Of a DNA stretch of 12,846 bases, positions 2,018 to 10,605 are shown piece after piece. The DNA lies in the UHGV virus genome UHGV-0072830; one strand, given 5' to 3'. The notes beneath the pieces are model-generated. The model was given only the letters and a program-made list of their open reading frames with translations. It did not search any database and was not told where the DNA came from. The position numbers were made by a program, and so were the translations under genes. Position 1 is the stretch's first letter, and each line of letters opens with the position of its first letter. Source of the DNA: a virus.

Positions 2018-2407
2018 TTAAAACAAAGGGGGGGAATACTGACGATACTTTATACGCCGCATTCGTCGGATGGCTTTATAGACTGTGTTAAATGTCACAC
2101 CATGACGGATTGCCAGTTCGTGAACATTGCGACCGTTGAAATCATTCCAGATACGCAAATCCCGAATAAGCGAATCCAGAACCTGACCGCGTGGAATGTA
2201 GACCTGACCGCCGCCCAGATGCTTACAGATAGCCACAACAATCTCCAGTGAATGGGCCGGGTCAACACCTAACCGGGACAATTCCCCGCGCAGTAAATCG
2301 TTCAGCTCCGCCAGCAGTGCCGGAAAGCGTGACGTATCCTCTGCGGGATTGTCAAGATGTGCCAGGATGGTGTCATCCTGCAAATCACCAAATAAATCTT
2401 CCGTCAT
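2018..2407 (-). CDS. mor: Middle operon regulator Mor (Mor/C family transcription activator)
   Basis: 129-aa ORF. ATG overlaps the gemA stop (ATGA). C-terminal HTH region is paralogous to the C ORF. Size and position match Mu mor (recollection). Confidence 0.85.
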   Translation of the reverse strand: MTEDLFGDLQDDTILAHLDNPAEDTSRFPALLAELNDLLRGELSRLGVDPAHSLEIVVAICKHLGGGQVYIPRGQVLDSLIRDLRIWNDFNGRNVHELAIRHGVTFNTVYKAIRRMRRIKYRQYSPPLF

Positions 2408-2955
2408 TGTGCCATCCTCCGTGTCTTTCTGGCACGGGCATAAGCCGCCGTCATGGCATCATAGCCGCGCAGTTCACGCCCGGACGGACTGACTGGCAAC
2501 GGAAGCCCGTGACGGGAAAAGGCTTCACGAATACAGCGGATATGCCACTGCTTGAGAGTTTCGAGAACAATCAACAGGGTGTCGCCATGACACCACGCCA
2601 GCGTGGAAACACCCTGTCCGCCATTACGTTTCGCCGTCAGGCGCTGAACATATTTATCCAGCGCCACATCACCGCCATCGGTAATAAAACCGTCTTCTGC
2701 CATCTGCTGCCAGACTTTGTATACCTTCTCGCGGGGCGTGACATGCCCCTTAAAGCGGCGACGTGGATGTTTATTCAGCTTCTTAAAGCCGCGTTCTTTC
2801 ATGGCATCGAGCACCTGTTCCAGTTGCGTAACCGTCAGCTCGCGGCAACTGATTTTGCCCGTTTTCTGCATCAGAAAAGCGCGGTAAGTGTCGTCGTCGA
2901 GTTGTAGCTCCCGACGGGCGACATGGATTAATTTAATCAGGGATGTGCGATTCAT
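2404..2955 (-). CDS. gemA: GemA-like early regulatory protein
   Basis: 183-aa ORF immediately upstream of and translationally coupled to mor. SD GGAGGT. Position and size as Mu gemA (recollection). Confidence 0.75.
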   Translation of the reverse strand: MNRTSLIKLIHVARRELQLDDDTYRAFLMQKTGKISCRELTVTQLEQVLDAMKERGFKKLNKHPRRRFKGHVTPREKVYKVWQQMAEDGFITDGGDVALDKYVQRLTAKRNGGQGVSTLAWCHGDTLLIVLETLKQWHIRCIREAFSRHGLPLPVSPSGRELRGYDAMTAAYARARKTRRMAQ

Positions 2956-3024
2956 GATCGTACCTCCGGAAAGAGGCGGTGCTGCAACACCGCCTGAATT
3001 TACACATCAATCAGAGAGGATTTT

Positions 3025-3291
3025 ATGGAAAATAATGTACAACCTTATGATGTTGCAGGTTATGCGATTGCATCAGCACTGGTGCGCCTTCTGGTGAAGA
3101 AGGCGATCATCACCGCAGAAGAGGGCCAGGCCATTTTCAGCTCTTCAGCAGAGATTTTAAAAGATGCGCCTGCAATAAGAACAAGCCGCCGCGAAAACAT
3201 GCAACTGTCAAAGATCATGGAAGACATTATCAGTTCGTTAGACCCAGATGCTGACGGATCTCAAAAGCCTCAAACACATGAGCGTCAGTAA
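3025..3291 (+). CDS. Candidate opposite-strand small protein (88 aa) in the early-operon gap; uncertain
   Basis: ORF with SD-like AGAGAGGA 4-5 nt before the ATG. Sits in a 274-bp gap between early genes and overlaps the convergent 3230..3532 ORF by 62 nt. No promoter identified. Confidence 0.3.
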   Translation: MENNVQPYDVAGYAIASALVRLLVKKAIITAEEGQAIFSSSAEILKDAPAIRTSRRENMQLSKIMEDIISSLDPDADGSQKPQTHERQ

Positions 3292-3532
3292 CAATATCCT
3301 GGTCTGATAACCCCAGCCTGCGGCGGATGTACTCCTCGCGGGCTGTTTCATTTTGCAGTGCCACTACTGTTTCCAGACGATTCATTTCGCGGTTGATAAT
3401 GTCACGGACTTCTCTGGCGGTGAGATTATGCTTAATACCATATTCAACGATAGCGCGAACACGTTCCAGCATCCCTTTTTCAGCCATGACGTTATCAATA
3501 TTAAGGGGAGTAAATTTATCTTCATTGTTCAT
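3230..3532 (-). CDS. Hypothetical early protein (100 aa)
   Basis: ATG at 3532 overlaps the stop of the upstream ORF (ATGA coupling). Colinear with the early operon. Confidence 0.7.
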   Translation of the reverse strand: MNNEDKFTPLNIDNVMAEKGMLERVRAIVEYGIKHNLTAREVRDIINREMNRLETVVALQNETAREEYIRRRLGLSDQDIVTDAHVFEAFEIRQHLGLTN

Positions 3533-3837
3533 TTTGCGGCCCTCAGAATAAATTCAGGATAAAATTTCAGACTCATTTGCCGTAACACATCCAGTGCAGC
3601 AACGGCTGCTGATTTATCGTTGCCATCAGCAATAGCGCGGAGATTTTCAATAATCCAGTGAGGACTCAGTGACTCAGCAATAATGCCAAACCGGTACGCC
3701 ATGACCTCATCAATAGCTTTTTCATGAGACGGCTCATATACAAAATTCACAAAGTCATGCACTTCTTTTTTCGGCAAACCACCGGCAATCAGCAGGGCGG
3801 CAAGCTCTTCTGATTTTGAAAATACACCATTATTCAT
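3529..3837 (-). CDS. Hypothetical early protein (102 aa from ATG at 3837; track ORF extends to GTG at 3852)
   Basis: ATG at 3837 preceded by AAGGTGA SD and lying 1 nt after the upstream gene stop. Confidence 0.7.
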   Translation of the reverse strand: MNNGVFSKSEELAALLIAGGLPKKEVHDFVNFVYEPSHEKAIDEVMAYRFGIIAESLSPHWIIENLRAIADGNDKSAAVAALDVLRQMSLKFYPEFILRAAK

Positions 3838-4021: not shown

Positions 4022-4538
4022 TGTTTACCTCCGCCTGTTTTTGCGCCCGGATAAATTCGTCAGAAAGGATTTCAGTCATGCGGCCCTGTGCGGGAGTCAT
4101 CCCTGTCATGACGTAAATCACATCACCAACACGGAACCACCGGAGCGGGCCGAATATTGTTGCGCTGAAATCCAGTCCCAGTGCGGGTAAGAGAGCGTCA
4201 GTACGGGCATAAGTGACCGGAATATTCTCCTGCCATATTTTCGCCAGCTCTTTTGACTGCTCCCGCAGATGTGCAGGAATGCGCGATGTTCTTGGCCTGC
4301 AACTGTTACCTGATGCGGAGCGTTGTACAGTCCACAACTCCGGCGAGAAAGGTCGCTCATTCCCCGGAAAATTCACGCCATGAAAATGACGCCCACCAAT
4401 ACCTGTGCTGAATACTGACCGGCAACCACAACCCAGAACCTTATCAAGATGGCGGGCTTCTTCGCGTAGTTTCAGGCAGTCCGCCATAAACTGGTCCCAT
4501 GCCAGCAGTGCTGCGGGATTTGACGTTTTAAAAAACAT
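4008..4538 (-). CDS. Hypothetical early protein (176 aa from ATG at 4538; track ORF starts at TTG 4577)
   Basis: ATG at 4538 overlaps the upstream stop (ATGA) and is preceded by an AGGAGG SD. Confidence 0.7.
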   Translation of the reverse strand: MFFKTSNPAALLAWDQFMADCLKLREEARHLDKVLGCGCRSVFSTGIGGRHFHGVNFPGNERPFSPELWTVQRSASGNSCRPRTSRIPAHLREQSKELAKIWQENIPVTYARTDALLPALGLDFSATIFGPLRWFRVGDVIYVMTGMTPAQGRMTEILSDEFIRAQKQAEVNNGKQ

Positions 4539-5068
4539 CACGCCACCTCCTGCACCGCTGCGGGAGCCGGAGAACAATCAAGAATGAGATAACGCAGTAC
4601 ATGGTCGGTGATATTCCAGGCGCTGGAACTGCAAATAAAACGCCCCAGCCGGATATCGATATAAGCCATCACAAAACGGGGCATTCCCTGTTCGCACATT
4701 CTGTTATCCACCTCAGCAACAATGTGAACTGACTCACAGGTCAGCACGCCCGTCGCAAACTCTTTTGCCAGCGCGGGGATGGTATTACCTTCCACCCAGG
4801 GTAATGAGCGACGCCAGTTGCACCACACCGCATCATCAACAGCAGGCTGCTCAGTTGCGTTTCGTCTTACAGGCGGCGTCGGACGCGGGCGCGGAACGTC
4901 ATAAAATCCGTTGCATTCGGTGAGCACTCCGGCATCAACCGCATCACGCAGGAAATACACCATTGACGAGGGCAGCATATTCATTTTTTCAGCCAGAACT
5001 CCGCAGGTCAGGCGTCCGTAAGCCCGTAATAATGTGCTGACACCATTCAGAATTTTTGCATCAACCAT
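4538..5068 (-). CDS. Hypothetical early protein (176 aa), Pro-rich linker between two domains
   Basis: ATG at 5068 with GAGGA SD. Internal PRPRPTPPVRR linker. Confidence 0.7.
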   Translation of the reverse strand: MVDAKILNGVSTLLRAYGRLTCGVLAEKMNMLPSSMVYFLRDAVDAGVLTECNGFYDVPRPRPTPPVRRNATEQPAVDDAVWCNWRRSLPWVEGNTIPALAKEFATGVLTCESVHIVAEVDNRMCEQGMPRFVMAYIDIRLGRFICSSSAWNITDHVLRYLILDCSPAPAAVQEVA

Positions 5069-5166
5069 GTTTTATTCCTCAGTAATCTGTTTCAGGCGCG
5101 AGCAATCCCCTGACGTATCGCGCCATAATTAAAAGAATGTGAATTAATTAAATATTAATGGTGGTA

Positions 5167-5691
5167 TTAAATACCGGCTTCCTGTTCAAATGGAATAATA
5201 GAAAAATCCTCAATGCCTGATTTAACTGTAATTCCGGCAACGCCTGCGACCGCTTTCGGTTCCAGTAAAATCGCTTCCTTGTTGATTTCCTGCTTCGTGC
5301 GAATAAAGCGTTGCAGGCCAAGACGCTCCAGCGTTTCCATCACTGCATCCATACCACGAATACTTACTGATGGCGGACGGACCCGCCACGATACATCACC
5401 GGTGACAAGATTCGCCGTCTTCACTTTGCCGCCGTTCGTCAGTTCGTCGCGGTTCGCTTCACACCATCCCTGAACGCCTTTTGAAAGGGTTTCAATATCG
5501 GTTTTAATCGGTGCAATCCGGGCTGCAAATTTCTCCGTAATTTCCGCGATGGCATCATTCATTTCCGTTTCCAGACGTGATGCTTCGCGCTGTAAATCCC
5601 CGATGCGTTTAATATCGGTAATCACCGCATCGCGGTTTTGTGGCACATAAGCCGCTGCGGCACTTTTGATACGTTTTGCTGGTTTAGCCAT
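5167..5691 (-). CDS. gam: Host-nuclease inhibitor Gam (Ku-like DNA-end-binding protein)
   Basis: 174-aa ORF with AGGAG SD. Sequence (MAKPAKRIKSAAAAYVPQNRDAV...) matches my recollection of Mu Gam. Not verified by search. Confidence 0.88.
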   Translation of the reverse strand: MAKPAKRIKSAAAAYVPQNRDAVITDIKRIGDLQREASRLETEMNDAIAEITEKFAARIAPIKTDIETLSKGVQGWCEANRDELTNGGKVKTANLVTGDVSWRVRPPSVSIRGMDAVMETLERLGLQRFIRTKQEINKEAILLEPKAVAGVAGITVKSGIEDFSIIPFEQEAGI

Positions 5692-7207: not shown

Positions 7208-8146
7208 TTAATTACGCAGCAGCGTTGAAATATCAACGTCCAGGTCTAATTCACGGAAAGCCTGACGCAGATAATCTTCGTTAACACGCTCACCTTTACC
7301 GTGAGCCGTCATGGCGGCAAGGCGAAGTGAATGATTCAGAATGCGAAGCGCACCTGGTTTCTGCGCAATCTGCTGTAATAACTCCAGTTCTTTTTCGCCG
7401 TTAATCTGCCAGGCATCCGCAATAGCTTTTACATCGGCTTTTTTTGTTTTATTAATTGCAGTGCGCTTTGCAATACGGGAAAACAGACGGGCAAATTCAA
7501 CCGTTCTGTTACCCCCCGTCATATTTGAATAAACCCGGTGATTTCCCATCAGCACAAGGCCAATACGGGTTGATTCCTGTAACAGGCGGAGTTCTTCCAG
7601 AACTTCGGCACCAAGATGATCAGCTTCGTCGATGATAACCAGCCCCTGTGTACCTTCAAGGCGACGTCGCAGGGCGCGGGAGAGCGGCCCTTTACGGCGT
7701 GGTGCGTCATTCATTCCCAGCTCAAACGCCAGTTCAGTAAGACATTCCAGAACGCTGGCACAGGATGGCGTAATGGTGATCATCCAGACATTGTTATTGG
7801 TGCGGCGATATTCACGGGCCGCTTCGGTTTTGCCCACACCAGGATTGCCACATACAACAGCAATACTTTCAGTCAGGCTGGCAAAACGCATACTTGTCCA
7901 GATTTGTTTTACCGTCTGCGTTTCCACAAAGCGGGGCGGTTCAGGTAGTTCTGCAACTGCATGATATTTTTCCAGCCAGCGTTGCAGAATTTGTGAAACA
8001 CGCTCGTTATCCCCGTTGTACTTATCATTGATAAAACTACTGATAGTTCCGGTAGAAAGTCCGCTCTCAAGAGCAATTTGTTTAAAGGTGGTTTCTTCAT
8101 TTTCTACAAGCGTGCGCAGTCCTGCGCGAATATCGGAAATATTCAT
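7208..8146 (-). CDS. B: Transposition protein B (AAA+ ATPase target DNA activator)
   Basis: 312-aa ORF with Walker A GNPGVGKTE and Walker B LVIIDEADHL. Sequence matches my recollection of MuB. Confidence 0.93.
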   Translation of the reverse strand: MNISDIRAGLRTLVENEETTFKQIALESGLSTGTISSFINDKYNGDNERVSQILQRWLEKYHAVAELPEPPRFVETQTVKQIWTSMRFASLTESIAVVCGNPGVGKTEAAREYRRTNNNVWMITITPSCASVLECLTELAFELGMNDAPRRKGPLSRALRRRLEGTQGLVIIDEADHLGAEVLEELRLLQESTRIGLVLMGNHRVYSNMTGGNRTVEFARLFSRIAKRTAINKTKKADVKAIADAWQINGEKELELLQQIAQKPGALRILNHSLRLAAMTAHGKGERVNEDYLRQAFRELDLDVDISTLLRN

Positions 8147-8184
8147 CTGAATAACCTCGTAATTAAATTTTGTTTAAACGTTAA

Positions 8185-10185
8185 TTAAATGGCTTTTTTA
8201 CGTCTGTTCTGTTCCAGAATATCCAGCGAATGATTCAGATATTCATCACGCTCAGTTTCGTATTCATCATCACGCTCCTGATTCTTCACCCGTTCCATAT
8301 TACCGGAAGGCCGGAAAATGCCGACAATTCGTGATTCTGGTGCTTCAGGTTCGGCTATCTGCGGCAGCAGCTCTGCCACTTCCAGTGCATCCATTTGTTT
8401 CTGTGCCTTAATCGCTGCTTTCGTCGCAGATTTCAGTTGTTTCTGGCGGCGGCGATATTCACGGCCTGCCGCAGCATCATTAAACGCAACAGGTGACAGA
8501 CATTCCGCTTCACAGATAAACCGACCGTCCAGGGTGTAGCAATAAACCGTGCTGTGTAACTGCTGTGGATCAAATCTGACCACAACTTTTTTCACTCCGG
8601 CATTCATTAACGCCATGTTGTAATAAACGTTTTTCGCACCTTTAAGGGAGCCGCCAACTTTAAGCGCGAACTCGCCTTTACGTGAAACGTTCACCGCCTC
8701 GGCAGGCAGTAACAGCATCCGTTTTTGCTCTTCGGTAGGCTTACGCACAATCGTTCTGGCGTATTCACGCTCAAAAACGTCATCAAACGAAAGTTTGCCT
8801 CCGCACATTTCTGTTTCACGGCCTGTTCTGGCATTGAACATCGCCACACCTTCGGCAAGGGTTTTCAGAAACAGCTCTGCATCAACAGCGCGGTCGCCAT
8901 AGTTATCAGGTTTTGCCTGCGGATTAGGCCCCGTATATGCGCCAGCCAGTGCCGGATGCTTATCAACGTATTCCTCAAGCCCACCAACACCGAAAGCACG
9001 TTCAACAGGTTTTGCCTGGCCCCAGCCTTTACCGGCAACAACGCTTGTCCAGTGCATTTTCGCCCCCATCAGTAAAAACAGTCCTTTTGGATCGTCCTCT
9101 TTTACCTTAAAGCGGTAGCGATTGGGCGCGCCTCCCGTCAGCCATTTATTCGCAGCACCACGGGTGTTATCAATGGTGATGTGAAAATCCTCCGGGATAC
9201 CGTAGCGAGTCACAACATCCATGAACGAGAGGCGAATTGAATCAATGTTCTCGCTCACATCGCAGCGCCAGCCCAGAATTTTTCGGGTTTTCACATCCTG
9301 CCAGAACCATGTTTTCGGGCGGATCACATCACCGTTAAACCAGCGTACAAAGACGTTATGCAGATAACCGTCGCCGTTGATCCACTGCATGGCGTCCAGG
9401 TGTTCCACAGTTCGTTGTTGTGCCGGTATCAGATGCATCAGTGCATGTTCACCTTCACGGCAGGCAACAACCATTGCCTCGTTCAGTTGCTGAATCCGGC
9501 GAAAGGCCGTGGCACGGGAGGGAATACTCCAGCCATGCTCGCGGGCTGCCAGTTCCAGACGCTCATAACATTTGCGGAAGGCGGGTTTTTCCGGTCGCAG
9601 ATAATCTGCAATCAGAAACTGCCAGGCATCCTCGTCAAATTCACTTTTGTGAACATTGCGACGGGATGCACCACGTCCATCAACAAGAGCAGCCGCCCAG
9701 TCAGGCTTCGCAAACTTCTGTACCTGGTAATACTTGTCACGCAAAGTGGATGCGCTGACCTGGTAATGTCCTGCAACGGTCGCAAAAGCCGTTTTTGTTG
9801 AAATCCCCTGGTTCAGCATTTCGTCTGCGGCCTGAACCGCAGGCAACCATTTTTCAGCAAGTCTGCGCTGGGAATCGCTGGCGTTATCCCATTTGCTCCA
9901 CAGCGCCTCGCGATCATAATCGTGGGCTTCCAGCGTGGGGCGGGCGATTTCAAAACGGCCCATGCTTGTTTCAATCTCTCCTTGTCTAAGCAATAACGCA
10001 GCTTGCGTTTCCTTTGGTAAAGATGAGATATGAAACTCATAGGCTACTCCTCTTACCCCGTGTATCTGTCGAAACACCCACTGTTCTAACCTTGCTTTAC
10101 GAGAGATCGCGCTAGAGGATTTTGGAAGACCTATCAGCCCTTCTAATTTCTTTGCAGAAAACCAATCATTACATTGTGGTTGCAT
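8185..10185 (-). CDS. A: DDE transposase A (Mu/D108 family); likely start ATG 10185 (track ORF starts at TTG 10191)
   Basis: About 666 aa. The body matches my recollection of MuA (from [11 protein letters not shown] onward). N-terminal ~60 aa differ from Mu and resemble the repressor N-terminus in this window. GAGGT SD 7 nt before ATG 10185. Confidence 0.95.
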
Positions 10186-10187
10186 TT

Positions 10188-10406
10188 TCAATACCTCGAA
10201 GGCCAGAGGTCTCGTGGCTCAACTCCCAATGCATCGGCAATAATTCTTTCACCCCGAGGGTAAGGTTTATCCAAGGCATTTTTTACCGTAGAGATAGAGA
10301 GACCGTTCTCACGACCAAGAGCTGCTAGGCTTTTTCCTCTTTTGCGCAGATCAGCAACAATGTCGTATCTGCTTTTGTCTTCACATTTACTTTTCTTTAT
10401 CGCCAT
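10188..10406 (-). CDS. ner: Ner-like DNA-binding regulator (negative regulator of early and repressor transcription)
   Basis: 72 aa from ATG 10406. C-terminal ...[13 protein letters not shown] resembles the Ner family. Stop is 2 nt before the A start. First gene of the early operon. Confidence 0.8.
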
Positions 10407-10415
10407 AAAATGCAA

Positions 10416-10605
10416 TCCTCACAAGCTACGCCATCAGCTACGCCGCAAGGTAGCTGACAAGGTATGCAGCAATGTTAGTGTGAATACATTGTCAATGCAA
10501 TGATGTATTCAAATATTTCGTTTGAATTTCATCTATCTTGATGATTTTAAAATGAATATATTTTTGTTTCTTTGAATACACAGTGTATTTAAAGCGAGGT
10601 TTGTG
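10416..10605. promoter_or_regulatory. Immunity/operator region between ner and c; expected to hold divergent early and repressor promoters and the operators (transposition enhancer in Mu-type phages)
   Basis: 190-bp AT-rich divergent intergenic region. Contains palindromes built on TGAATACA half-sites at 10481-10511 and 10570-10594, and a GC-rich dyad at 10434-10457. Confidence 0.75.

Follow-up and report, generated by a model that had tools for sequence, protein, structure and literature searches.

A small gene set against the early operon and an invariant hairpin between gp14 and gemA of a Mu-like phage

Introduction

A moron is an autonomous promoter-gene-terminator unit inserted into a phage operon, between two of its genes. 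For Mu, a reference phage, the two main public records conflict over the DNA between gene 14 and gemA. In NC_000929, the gene Mup15 (NP_050619) occupies complement 7896..8162, on the reverse strand, between Mup14 and Mup16, whereas the curated record AF083977 omits gp15 and enters instead an antisense 55-aa ORF, Mu_54, on the forward strand. The gene had been entered as the putative ORF 'F-134' in the 1991 record of the Mu left end (GenBank M64097). It is listed in UniProt as GP15_BPMU and in SfMu as gp16, is also annotated in phage vB_YpM_5, and in prophages of E. coli and Salmonella it is labelled a 'hypothetical protein' by PGAP. The papers describing SfMu and the Yersinia phages do not discuss the gp15-gemA locus.

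The AF083977 record also places an experimentally derived 'Semi-early promoter' (Pgem) at 8151..8217, citing PMID 9454718, and the gem operon is expressed constitutively in lysogens according to the work cited as reference 71 in PMC3820752. In the Pseudomonas transposable phage Fc02, the antisense/overlapping early-region genes olg1 and olg2 are transcribed in the lysogen and have been linked to superinfection exclusion (PMC9936078).

Gene content around the gap

The DNA analysed here (the window) is a 12,846-nt stretch of the virus genome UHGV-0072830. It was assigned to a Mu-like phage with the early operon on the minus strand, including transposase A (8185-10191), B (7208-8146), gam (5167-5691) and mor (2018-2407). 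Over positions 2700-3600, the window was 100% identical to the Yersinia phages vB_YpM_5 and vB_YpM_6, 99.9% identical to the Shigella phage SfMu and 97% identical to Mu. The first gene of the gemA-mor pair, gemA (gp16; 2404-2955, minus strand), is a 183-aa ORF that aligned with Mu_16/GemA in AF083977 and in SfMu, and its homologs in related loci possessed the Pfam GemA domain. Its Shine-Dalgarno (SD) sequence GGAGG (2964-2968, minus strand), 8 nt ahead of the ATG, matches the RBS annotated at Mu 8221..8226 and was unchanged in 11 of 12 lineages. The upstream early gene (3230-3532, minus strand) was identified as the homolog of Mu gp14 (E15) from the ORF list, the annotations of Mu and SfMu, and PHROG 6075.

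The gene ends at 2955 and 3230 bear out the 274-bp gap (2956-3229) that the initial annotation had described between gemA and the gp14 homolog, and no conserved phage-strand gene was found within it. The hairpin, the 88-aa plus-strand ORF and the 55-aa phage-strand ORF reported from this gap were all recovered at the same positions. The gap is very probably the Mu gp15 locus, a small accessory cassette inserted backwards between gp14 and gemA.

Identity of the plus-strand ORF

The 88-aa ORF (3025-3291, plus strand) lies on the strand opposite the early operon and converges with gp14, sharing 62 nt with that gene at its 3' end. It is preceded by the SD sequence AGAGAGG (3013-3019), 5 nt ahead of the ATG at 3025. 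The protein was 95.5% identical to Mu gp15 over 88 aa, with four conservative substitutions, fell with GP15_BPMU into one 90% cluster, and spanned the whole profile of phrog_8747 (E 1.3e-60). The arrangement of the window equals that of NC_000929, with the same position, orientation and overlap with the 3' end of gp14 as Mu gene 15, and nothing of substance separates the two apart from the four conservative substitutions. The description of this ORF as unannotated was consequently mistaken, as it is Mu gp15, already present in RefSeq, SfMu, UniProt and PGAP annotations. Overall, the finding is largely already known, consisting mostly of Mu gp15 and the annotated gem promoter region.

Conservation and extent of the gp15 family

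A word-indexed protein search returned near-identical clusters only, and an exhaustive search was therefore needed. HMMER searches with the 88-aa protein recovered homologs of 86-90 aa at 45-51% identity, while genome contigs scanned with the family alignment yielded no confirmed relative. The homologs in Mu-like prophages of E. coli and Salmonella diverge from GemA across a 69-73-bp intergenic space, face the early operon from the opposite strand and reach into the 3' end of the convergent early gene. The whole family shares this placement in enterobacterial Mu-like phages, its members always diverging from gemA at a distance of 63-73 bp. The leaders are otherwise unalignable, with about ten of them keeping an AGG/GGA core 6-10 nt ahead of the ATG. 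In four lineages, the 88-aa frame remained intact at 86-90 aa with dS > 1 and dN/dS of 0.2-0.4, and gp15 substitutions were most frequent at the third codon position, followed by the first and then the second.

In D108, the slot is occupied by a different-looking 119-aa plus-strand ORF, also preceded by an SD. Pairwise BLASTP detected no similarity between this ORF and the 88-aa ORF. At the profile level, both matched phrog_32893 over the same columns (E 2e-4 for the 88-aa ORF and E 5e-7 for the D108 ORF), further family members matched it with E-values from 1e-10 to 1e-23, and hhalign aligned gp15 with the D108 type at a probability of 94.6% (E 6.7e-8). A scan of IMG/VR for the hairpin beside a CCTCC motif added more cassette variants of 76-91 aa, all sharing the motif [FY]D[IV]A[AG][FY]..A[GS].L...LV.KG[IV]I and starting about 24-33 nt past the hairpin, behind an SD. 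PHROGs 8747, 38610 and 32893 are one fast-diverging gemA-linked family with a shared N-terminal helical-hairpin domain, and over a thousand contigs of E. coli, Salmonella and E. albertii carry a member. The recognition of the three PHROGs as a single gemA-linked family is an incremental addition to what was known.

These comparisons show the plus-strand 88-aa ORF to be, in comparative terms, a genuine protein-coding gene of a position-locked family. The earlier suggestion of an antisense gene was in this respect well founded, given the conserved homologs, the fixed synteny, the conserved SD and a covarying terminator of its own (described below).

The 55-aa phage-strand ORF

The 55-aa ORF (3060-3227, minus strand) corresponds to Mu_54 of AF083977. 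No SD precedes it, and 2 nt separate the gp14 stop codon from its ATG (TGAtaATG). Its third codon positions are those of gp15, a layout in which a true gene most readily casts a long antisense shadow. As the third positions coincide, dN/dS cannot separate the 88-aa and 55-aa frames, and frame integrity was used instead. In-frame stops cut the 55-aa frame in the Salmonella loci L014, L016 and L018, all with intact gp15. Of the conservation and dN/dS of each ORF, which the initial annotation had put forward as a check, it was conservation of the frame that favoured the 88-aa ORF, the 55-aa frame being lost to stops in these three loci. Searches of profile libraries (PHROG, Pfam/NCBIfam-type searches) returned no family match for the 55-aa ORF. 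Based on the coincidence of its third positions with those of gp15 and on the stops that break its frame in the Salmonella homologs, the 55-aa ORF was interpreted as a non-coding antisense shadow of gp15.

The converse, in which Mu_54 would be a real gene translated by coupling to gp14 and the 88-aa ORF its shadow, is highly improbable. A start codon 2 nt past the gp14 stop does suit the packed style of the operon, Mu_54 is present in a curated record, and its frame is open in L010 too. Moreover, the five substitutions separating Mu from the window amount to two amino-acid and two synonymous changes in Mu_54 against four amino-acid changes in gp15; this comparison is uninformative, however, and the apparent dN/dS of Mu_54 is accounted for by the third positions that it shares with gp15. 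The Salmonella loci with stops also lack a conserved start for this frame, D108 has no equivalent of Mu_54 on the phage strand, and it is on the plus strand that the SD, the terminator and the family are found. The comparative evidence settles the annotation conflict for gp15, an incremental advance.

A predicted terminator overprinted on gp14

An intrinsic terminator of the gp15 unit was predicted on the plus strand at 3314-3354, beginning 23 nt past the gp15 stop codon, inside the gp14 coding sequence. It consists of a 13-pair stem (3314-3345) followed by the U-tract UUUCAUUUU (3346-3354), and coincides with a TransTermHP feature at Mu 7839..7873 in AF083977. The fold was more stable than expected on the plus strand (z -2.75) compared to the minus strand (z -0.7), where the version is weak and has no U-tract. 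In an alignment of eight lineages, 91% of cells were paired and compensatory changes were found at 5 of the 13 pairs, compared to a pairing of only 37-53% in slid-register controls. The G-U and U-G pairs are valid on the plus strand only, and are mismatched on the other strand.

An equivalent hairpin and U-tract followed the gp15 homolog in L010, L014, L033 and L045, and a weaker one in L037 and L042. In D108, an unlike sequence folds into a corresponding terminator, again on the plus strand and in the matching position; the gp14 peptide encoded over the terminator is AREEYIRRRLG in the window phage and KKAHNNIVCRELG in D108. These comparisons show a predicted plus-strand intrinsic terminator of the gp15 unit overprinted on the 3' coding part of gp14. 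The covarying terminator is new in an incremental sense, and provides a clear example of a transcription signal overprinted on a protein-coding region.

Dispensability of gp15 and states of the slot

A natural 223-bp deletion has removed the gp15 SD and codons 1-69 while retaining gp14 with its stop codon, the hairpin and gemA. In the window, the deletable span (3006-3232) is bounded by ATCA direct repeats (3006-3009 and 3229-3232). The deletion was carried by the plaque-forming phages vB_YpM_3 (L004) and vB_YpM_23 and by several prophages; its junction was read in vB_YpM_3 and in E. coli JCKP02 (L008), and an identical junction was found in L061 and L091. As these natural deletions occur in plaque-forming phages, gp15 is dispensable. 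In a second deletion type, codon 5 of gp15 is fused to gp13, and in L018 the gp15 homolog is truncated by an IS element. Elsewhere, the slot holds an alternative gene with an inverted repeat of its own, whose 134-138-aa product (phrog_585) weakly resembles DUF2513. Overall, these loci show that the cassette is polymorphic: some have it, some have lost it by deletion, some carry an unrelated divergent gene in its place, and some lack it.

In several respects gp15 resembles a moron: the unit consists of one small accessory gene and a predicted terminator, is polymorphic for presence or absence among close relatives, and is dispensable. Unlike a moron, however, it runs against the host operon, no promoter was found for it by scans, and the terminator sits within the coding sequence of a neighbour and not in intergenic DNA. 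In practical terms, the locus gains a corrected annotation and a defined dispensable accessory slot beside gemA-mor.

Promoter annotation between gp15 and gemA

According to the Mu annotation, the stretch between the gp15 and gemA starts carries the 'semi-early' gem promoter. Through a 99%-identical alignment, the annotated Pgem span maps to positions 2971-3036 of the window (minus strand), a homologous 66 bp in the same place ahead of the gemA SD. This span includes the hairpin and lies directly upstream of the gemA SD. Although the promoter is annotated in Mu, neither a consensus scan nor a position weight matrix (PWM) scan detected a consensus sigma-70 site, with -35 and -10 hexamers 16-18 bp apart, in 2971-3036, the best -10-like hexamer being TAAAAT (3025-3020) without a -35. 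On the plus strand upstream of 3025, the same two types of scan, which would miss weak or activator-dependent promoters, detected no sigma-70-like site for gp15. The 69-bp gp15-gemA intergenic space leaves barely room for two promoters.

The hairpin upstream of gemA

The perfect 8-bp hairpin AGGCGGTG-CTGCAA-CACCGCCT (2974-2995) can be read on either strand, with the core GGCGGTG-N6-CACCGCC at 2975-2994. On the early strand, its 3' end lies 19 nt ahead of the gemA ATG (2955) and 5 nt ahead of the gemA SD. Its folding energy was -16.0 kcal/mol on the early strand (z -3.6), which none of 200 shuffles equalled, and -15.2 kcal/mol on the plus strand (z about -3.5). Perfect 8-bp stems are expected about 1.3 times per 12.8 kb and five distinct ones were found in the window, two of them being the canonical-looking terminators past mor and C; an 8-bp stem alone is not beyond chance, and it is conservation that raises this hairpin above it.

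The 7-bp arms GGCGGTG and CACCGCC (14 positions) were invariant in 12 lineages, the exception being the outermost pair in L105. The 6-nt loop had a fixed length and five sequence variants, the hairpin-to-SD linker and the SD-to-ATG spacer varied among the 12 lineages, and the distance from the hairpin to the gemA SD stayed at 4-9 nt in all of them. In the Salmonella locus L014, the gemA 5' coding sequence was only about 74% identical, compared to 14 of 14 identical positions in the arms. No compensatory change was found in the arms, whereas the gp15 terminator varied at 9 of its 13 pairs in the same lineages, which leans towards sequence-specific recognition over pairing alone. A strand assignment of the hairpin by G-U pairs failed, as outer-pair wobbles fell on either strand depending on the lineage, and an Rfam search returned chance-level matches only. 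A proposed clamping of the complement of the gp15 SD onto the gemA SD by the hairpin was rejected, as the predicted pairing of the gemA SD in the wild type (0.58-0.99) did not exceed that with shuffled upstream sequence (0.63-0.91).

Among GemA-anchored loci, all those with a gp15-family gene had the hairpin, as did their deletion derivatives. Loci in which gemA directly adjoins the upstream early gene, and those with another divergent gene in the slot, had none. As it occurs only beside the gp15 cassette and many close gemA loci are without it, the hairpin, together with the gemA SD, travels with the cassette and is not a property of gemA. The resulting invariant 20-bp element is newly defined here, and could be a leaky two-way terminator/insulator, a protein site or an mRNA stabiliser. 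It offers a sharply defined mutation target for the entry of early transcription into mor, whose product Mor is the middle-phase activator.

The hairpin is tentatively read, at somewhat less than even confidence, as a leaky two-way terminator or insulator that would act at the RNA level between the backwards cassette and gemA-mor. The initial annotation had proposed a partial terminator or attenuator of gemA-mor; such a role is possible given the scan of L014, where the hairpin was terminator-like on both strands (tails UCUUUUUC and AUAUUUAU), but not as a general gate, since many close gemA loci have no hairpin. In the window, the tail UCUUUCCG contains four U in eight positions, the threshold being at least five in eight, and the terminator scan made no call; the TransTermHP annotation of Mu (AF083977) does not call the hairpin either. 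It shares a GC-rich stem followed by a pyrimidine-rich tail with the phage's own terminators past mor (1992-2012, with a U7 run) and past C (a terminator-like hairpin with a 12-bp stem, 596-622). Unlike them, it has a stem of 7-8 bp and a tail that is only UCUUUCC. Early transcripts must still read through to mor, which speaks against termination at the hairpin.

Invariance of all 14 arm positions in 12 lineages, around a spacer that keeps its length and not its sequence and between flanks that vary, would also be expected of a DNA operator at which a dimeric phage or host protein, bound to GGCGGTG-N6-CACCGCC, controls divergent gem and gp15 promoters. The hairpin lies centrally between the divergent starts and inside the annotated promoter region, and its arms, unlike the gp15 terminator in the same lineages, have no compensatory changes, although a short GC stem may simply tolerate no wobble intermediates. 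No candidate binding protein has been identified, the gp15-family proteins are acidic with only hydrophobic positions conserved, making DNA binding by them unlikely, and gemA loci without the hairpin exist; an operator was accordingly considered somewhat unlikely. The position of the hairpin, in every lineage 4-9 nt ahead of the gemA SD, its retention in deletion derivatives and its restriction to loci where part of the early transcript could pair with another mRNA are also compatible with a stabiliser or processing barrier in the gemA-mor 5'-UTR, shielding the message after cleavage of the stretch that pairs with the gp15 mRNA. This was judged unlikely, being entirely inferential: such stem-loops are normally needed at the very 5' end, and the related idea of gemA-SD pairing performed no better than shuffled controls.

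It is more doubtful still that the hairpin has no function of its own and is conserved by hitch-hiking, at the edge of a gemA-proximal recombination module that spread recently. The similarity of Mu to D108 does stop exactly at the 3' arm of the hairpin, and the adjoining 5' end of gemA is highly conserved too. However, the arms stay constant among lineages that differ in the loop, in the linker to the SD and in the spacer ahead of the ATG, and the divergence of the L014 gemA 5' coding sequence, set against its unchanged arms, also runs counter to this reading.

Proposed function of the gp15 cassette

No assignment was obtained for gp15 with Pfam, NCBIfam or PADLOC. In AlphaFold models (confidence 66-70, with or without a small alignment), a helical hairpin was predicted with confidence at about residues 8-25 and 31-46. 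The third helix that follows is less certain, and the part overlapping gp14 forms a disordered tail. Foldseek returned nothing at E < 1 against the PDB, and only Mu's own old ORF F-134 in BFVD. A resemblance to the N-terminal domain of T4 MotA was set aside, as a PDB-sequence profile search gave only E 0.11-0.34 and Foldseek gave no support; these sub-threshold matches are a lead, not evidence. The conserved positions of the family are hydrophobic and small residues, with no conserved basic ones, and several members are strongly acidic, making protein binding more plausible than DNA binding as the probable activity of gp15.

Within the accessory-cassette interpretation of the locus, gp15 would be transcribed independently of the early promoter Pe. 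It would most likely be inactive while strong early transcription opposes it, and so would probably act in the lysogen or very early. Its product, an acidic-to-neutral helical hairpin, probably works by binding another protein. A broader and unlikely proposal is that the cassette is a regulatory or conflict module, in which the prophage gp15 transcript, its terminator and the hairpin would set how much early transcription enters gemA-mor and so time the middle switch, the protein would hit a host or competing-phage factor (in exclusion or anti-defence, for example), and the arms would form a shared protein-binding site. The olg1 and olg2 genes of Fc02 differ from gp15 in lying beside the repressor rather than gemA and in having no sequence relation to it. 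Like gp15, they are small genes of a Mu-like phage, encoded against its early lytic operon.

Occupants of the slot upstream of gemA

In the window, gp15 (3025-3291, plus strand) occupies the slot immediately upstream of gemA. Other close gemA relatives (L077, L080, L083, L092, L093, L097, L102, L104 and L115; gemA at 1201) carried in its place an unrelated gene, 134-138 aa long and likewise divergent. This gene belonged to phrog_585, with a weak DUF2513 match, and its start lay only 30 nt away from the gemA ATG, with an inverted repeat (TCTCAT-N8-ATGAGA) between the two starts that covered the SDs of both genes. The place upstream of gemA is thus a site that backwards-facing accessory genes occupy recurrently.

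The two Mu reference records annotate opposite strands of the same stretch, with AF083977 listing Mu_54 (7960..8127), the ORF antisense to gp15, and NC_000929 listing Mup15 (7896..8162), the Mu gp15. Mup15, the gene favoured by the comparative data, appears to have been lost from the re-annotated Mu record. In a Salmonella prophage (L018), the gp15 homolog carried an IS element (Transposase_mut/MULE; 4236-5444) inserted at its 3' end, where the element takes the place of the gene's own C-terminus and terminator.

Hairpins and terminators

A second perfect 8-bp hairpin was found within gp15 (3085-3105; CGCCTTCT-GGTGA-AGAAGGCG), on the codons for VRLLVKKA. It was kept in Mu and SfMu, and is probably incidental, as it was weaker in L010, a related locus, and missing from the Salmonella homologs. 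Concerning the hairpin just upstream of gemA (2974-2995), its loop in the related locus L105 read CTGCAA on the gemA-sense strand, the reverse complement of the TTGCAG found in Mu, and its outer pair was G-U (gemA-anchored locus, upstream of 1201); the loop appears to have been inverted in L105 with the arms retained.

A canonical-looking intrinsic terminator was located on the minus strand a few nt downstream of the mor stop (1992-2012; AAAGCCGG-TTAAT-CCGGCTTT, followed by U7), in agreement with the annotated post-mor terminator features of Mu and D108. Its U7 tail offers an instructive contrast with the hairpin upstream of gemA, whose tail is weak. A perfect 12-bp hairpin (596-622; AAATAACCGGCA-GGA-TGCCGGTTATTT) at the 3' end of a 140-aa ORF (617-1039), presumably C, is presumably the middle-operon terminator. 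A further perfect 8-bp inverted repeat with an 8-nt loop (10434-10457; TCAGCTAC) was present upstream of a ner-sized ORF (10188-10415), which would place it in the putative ner/repressor control region.
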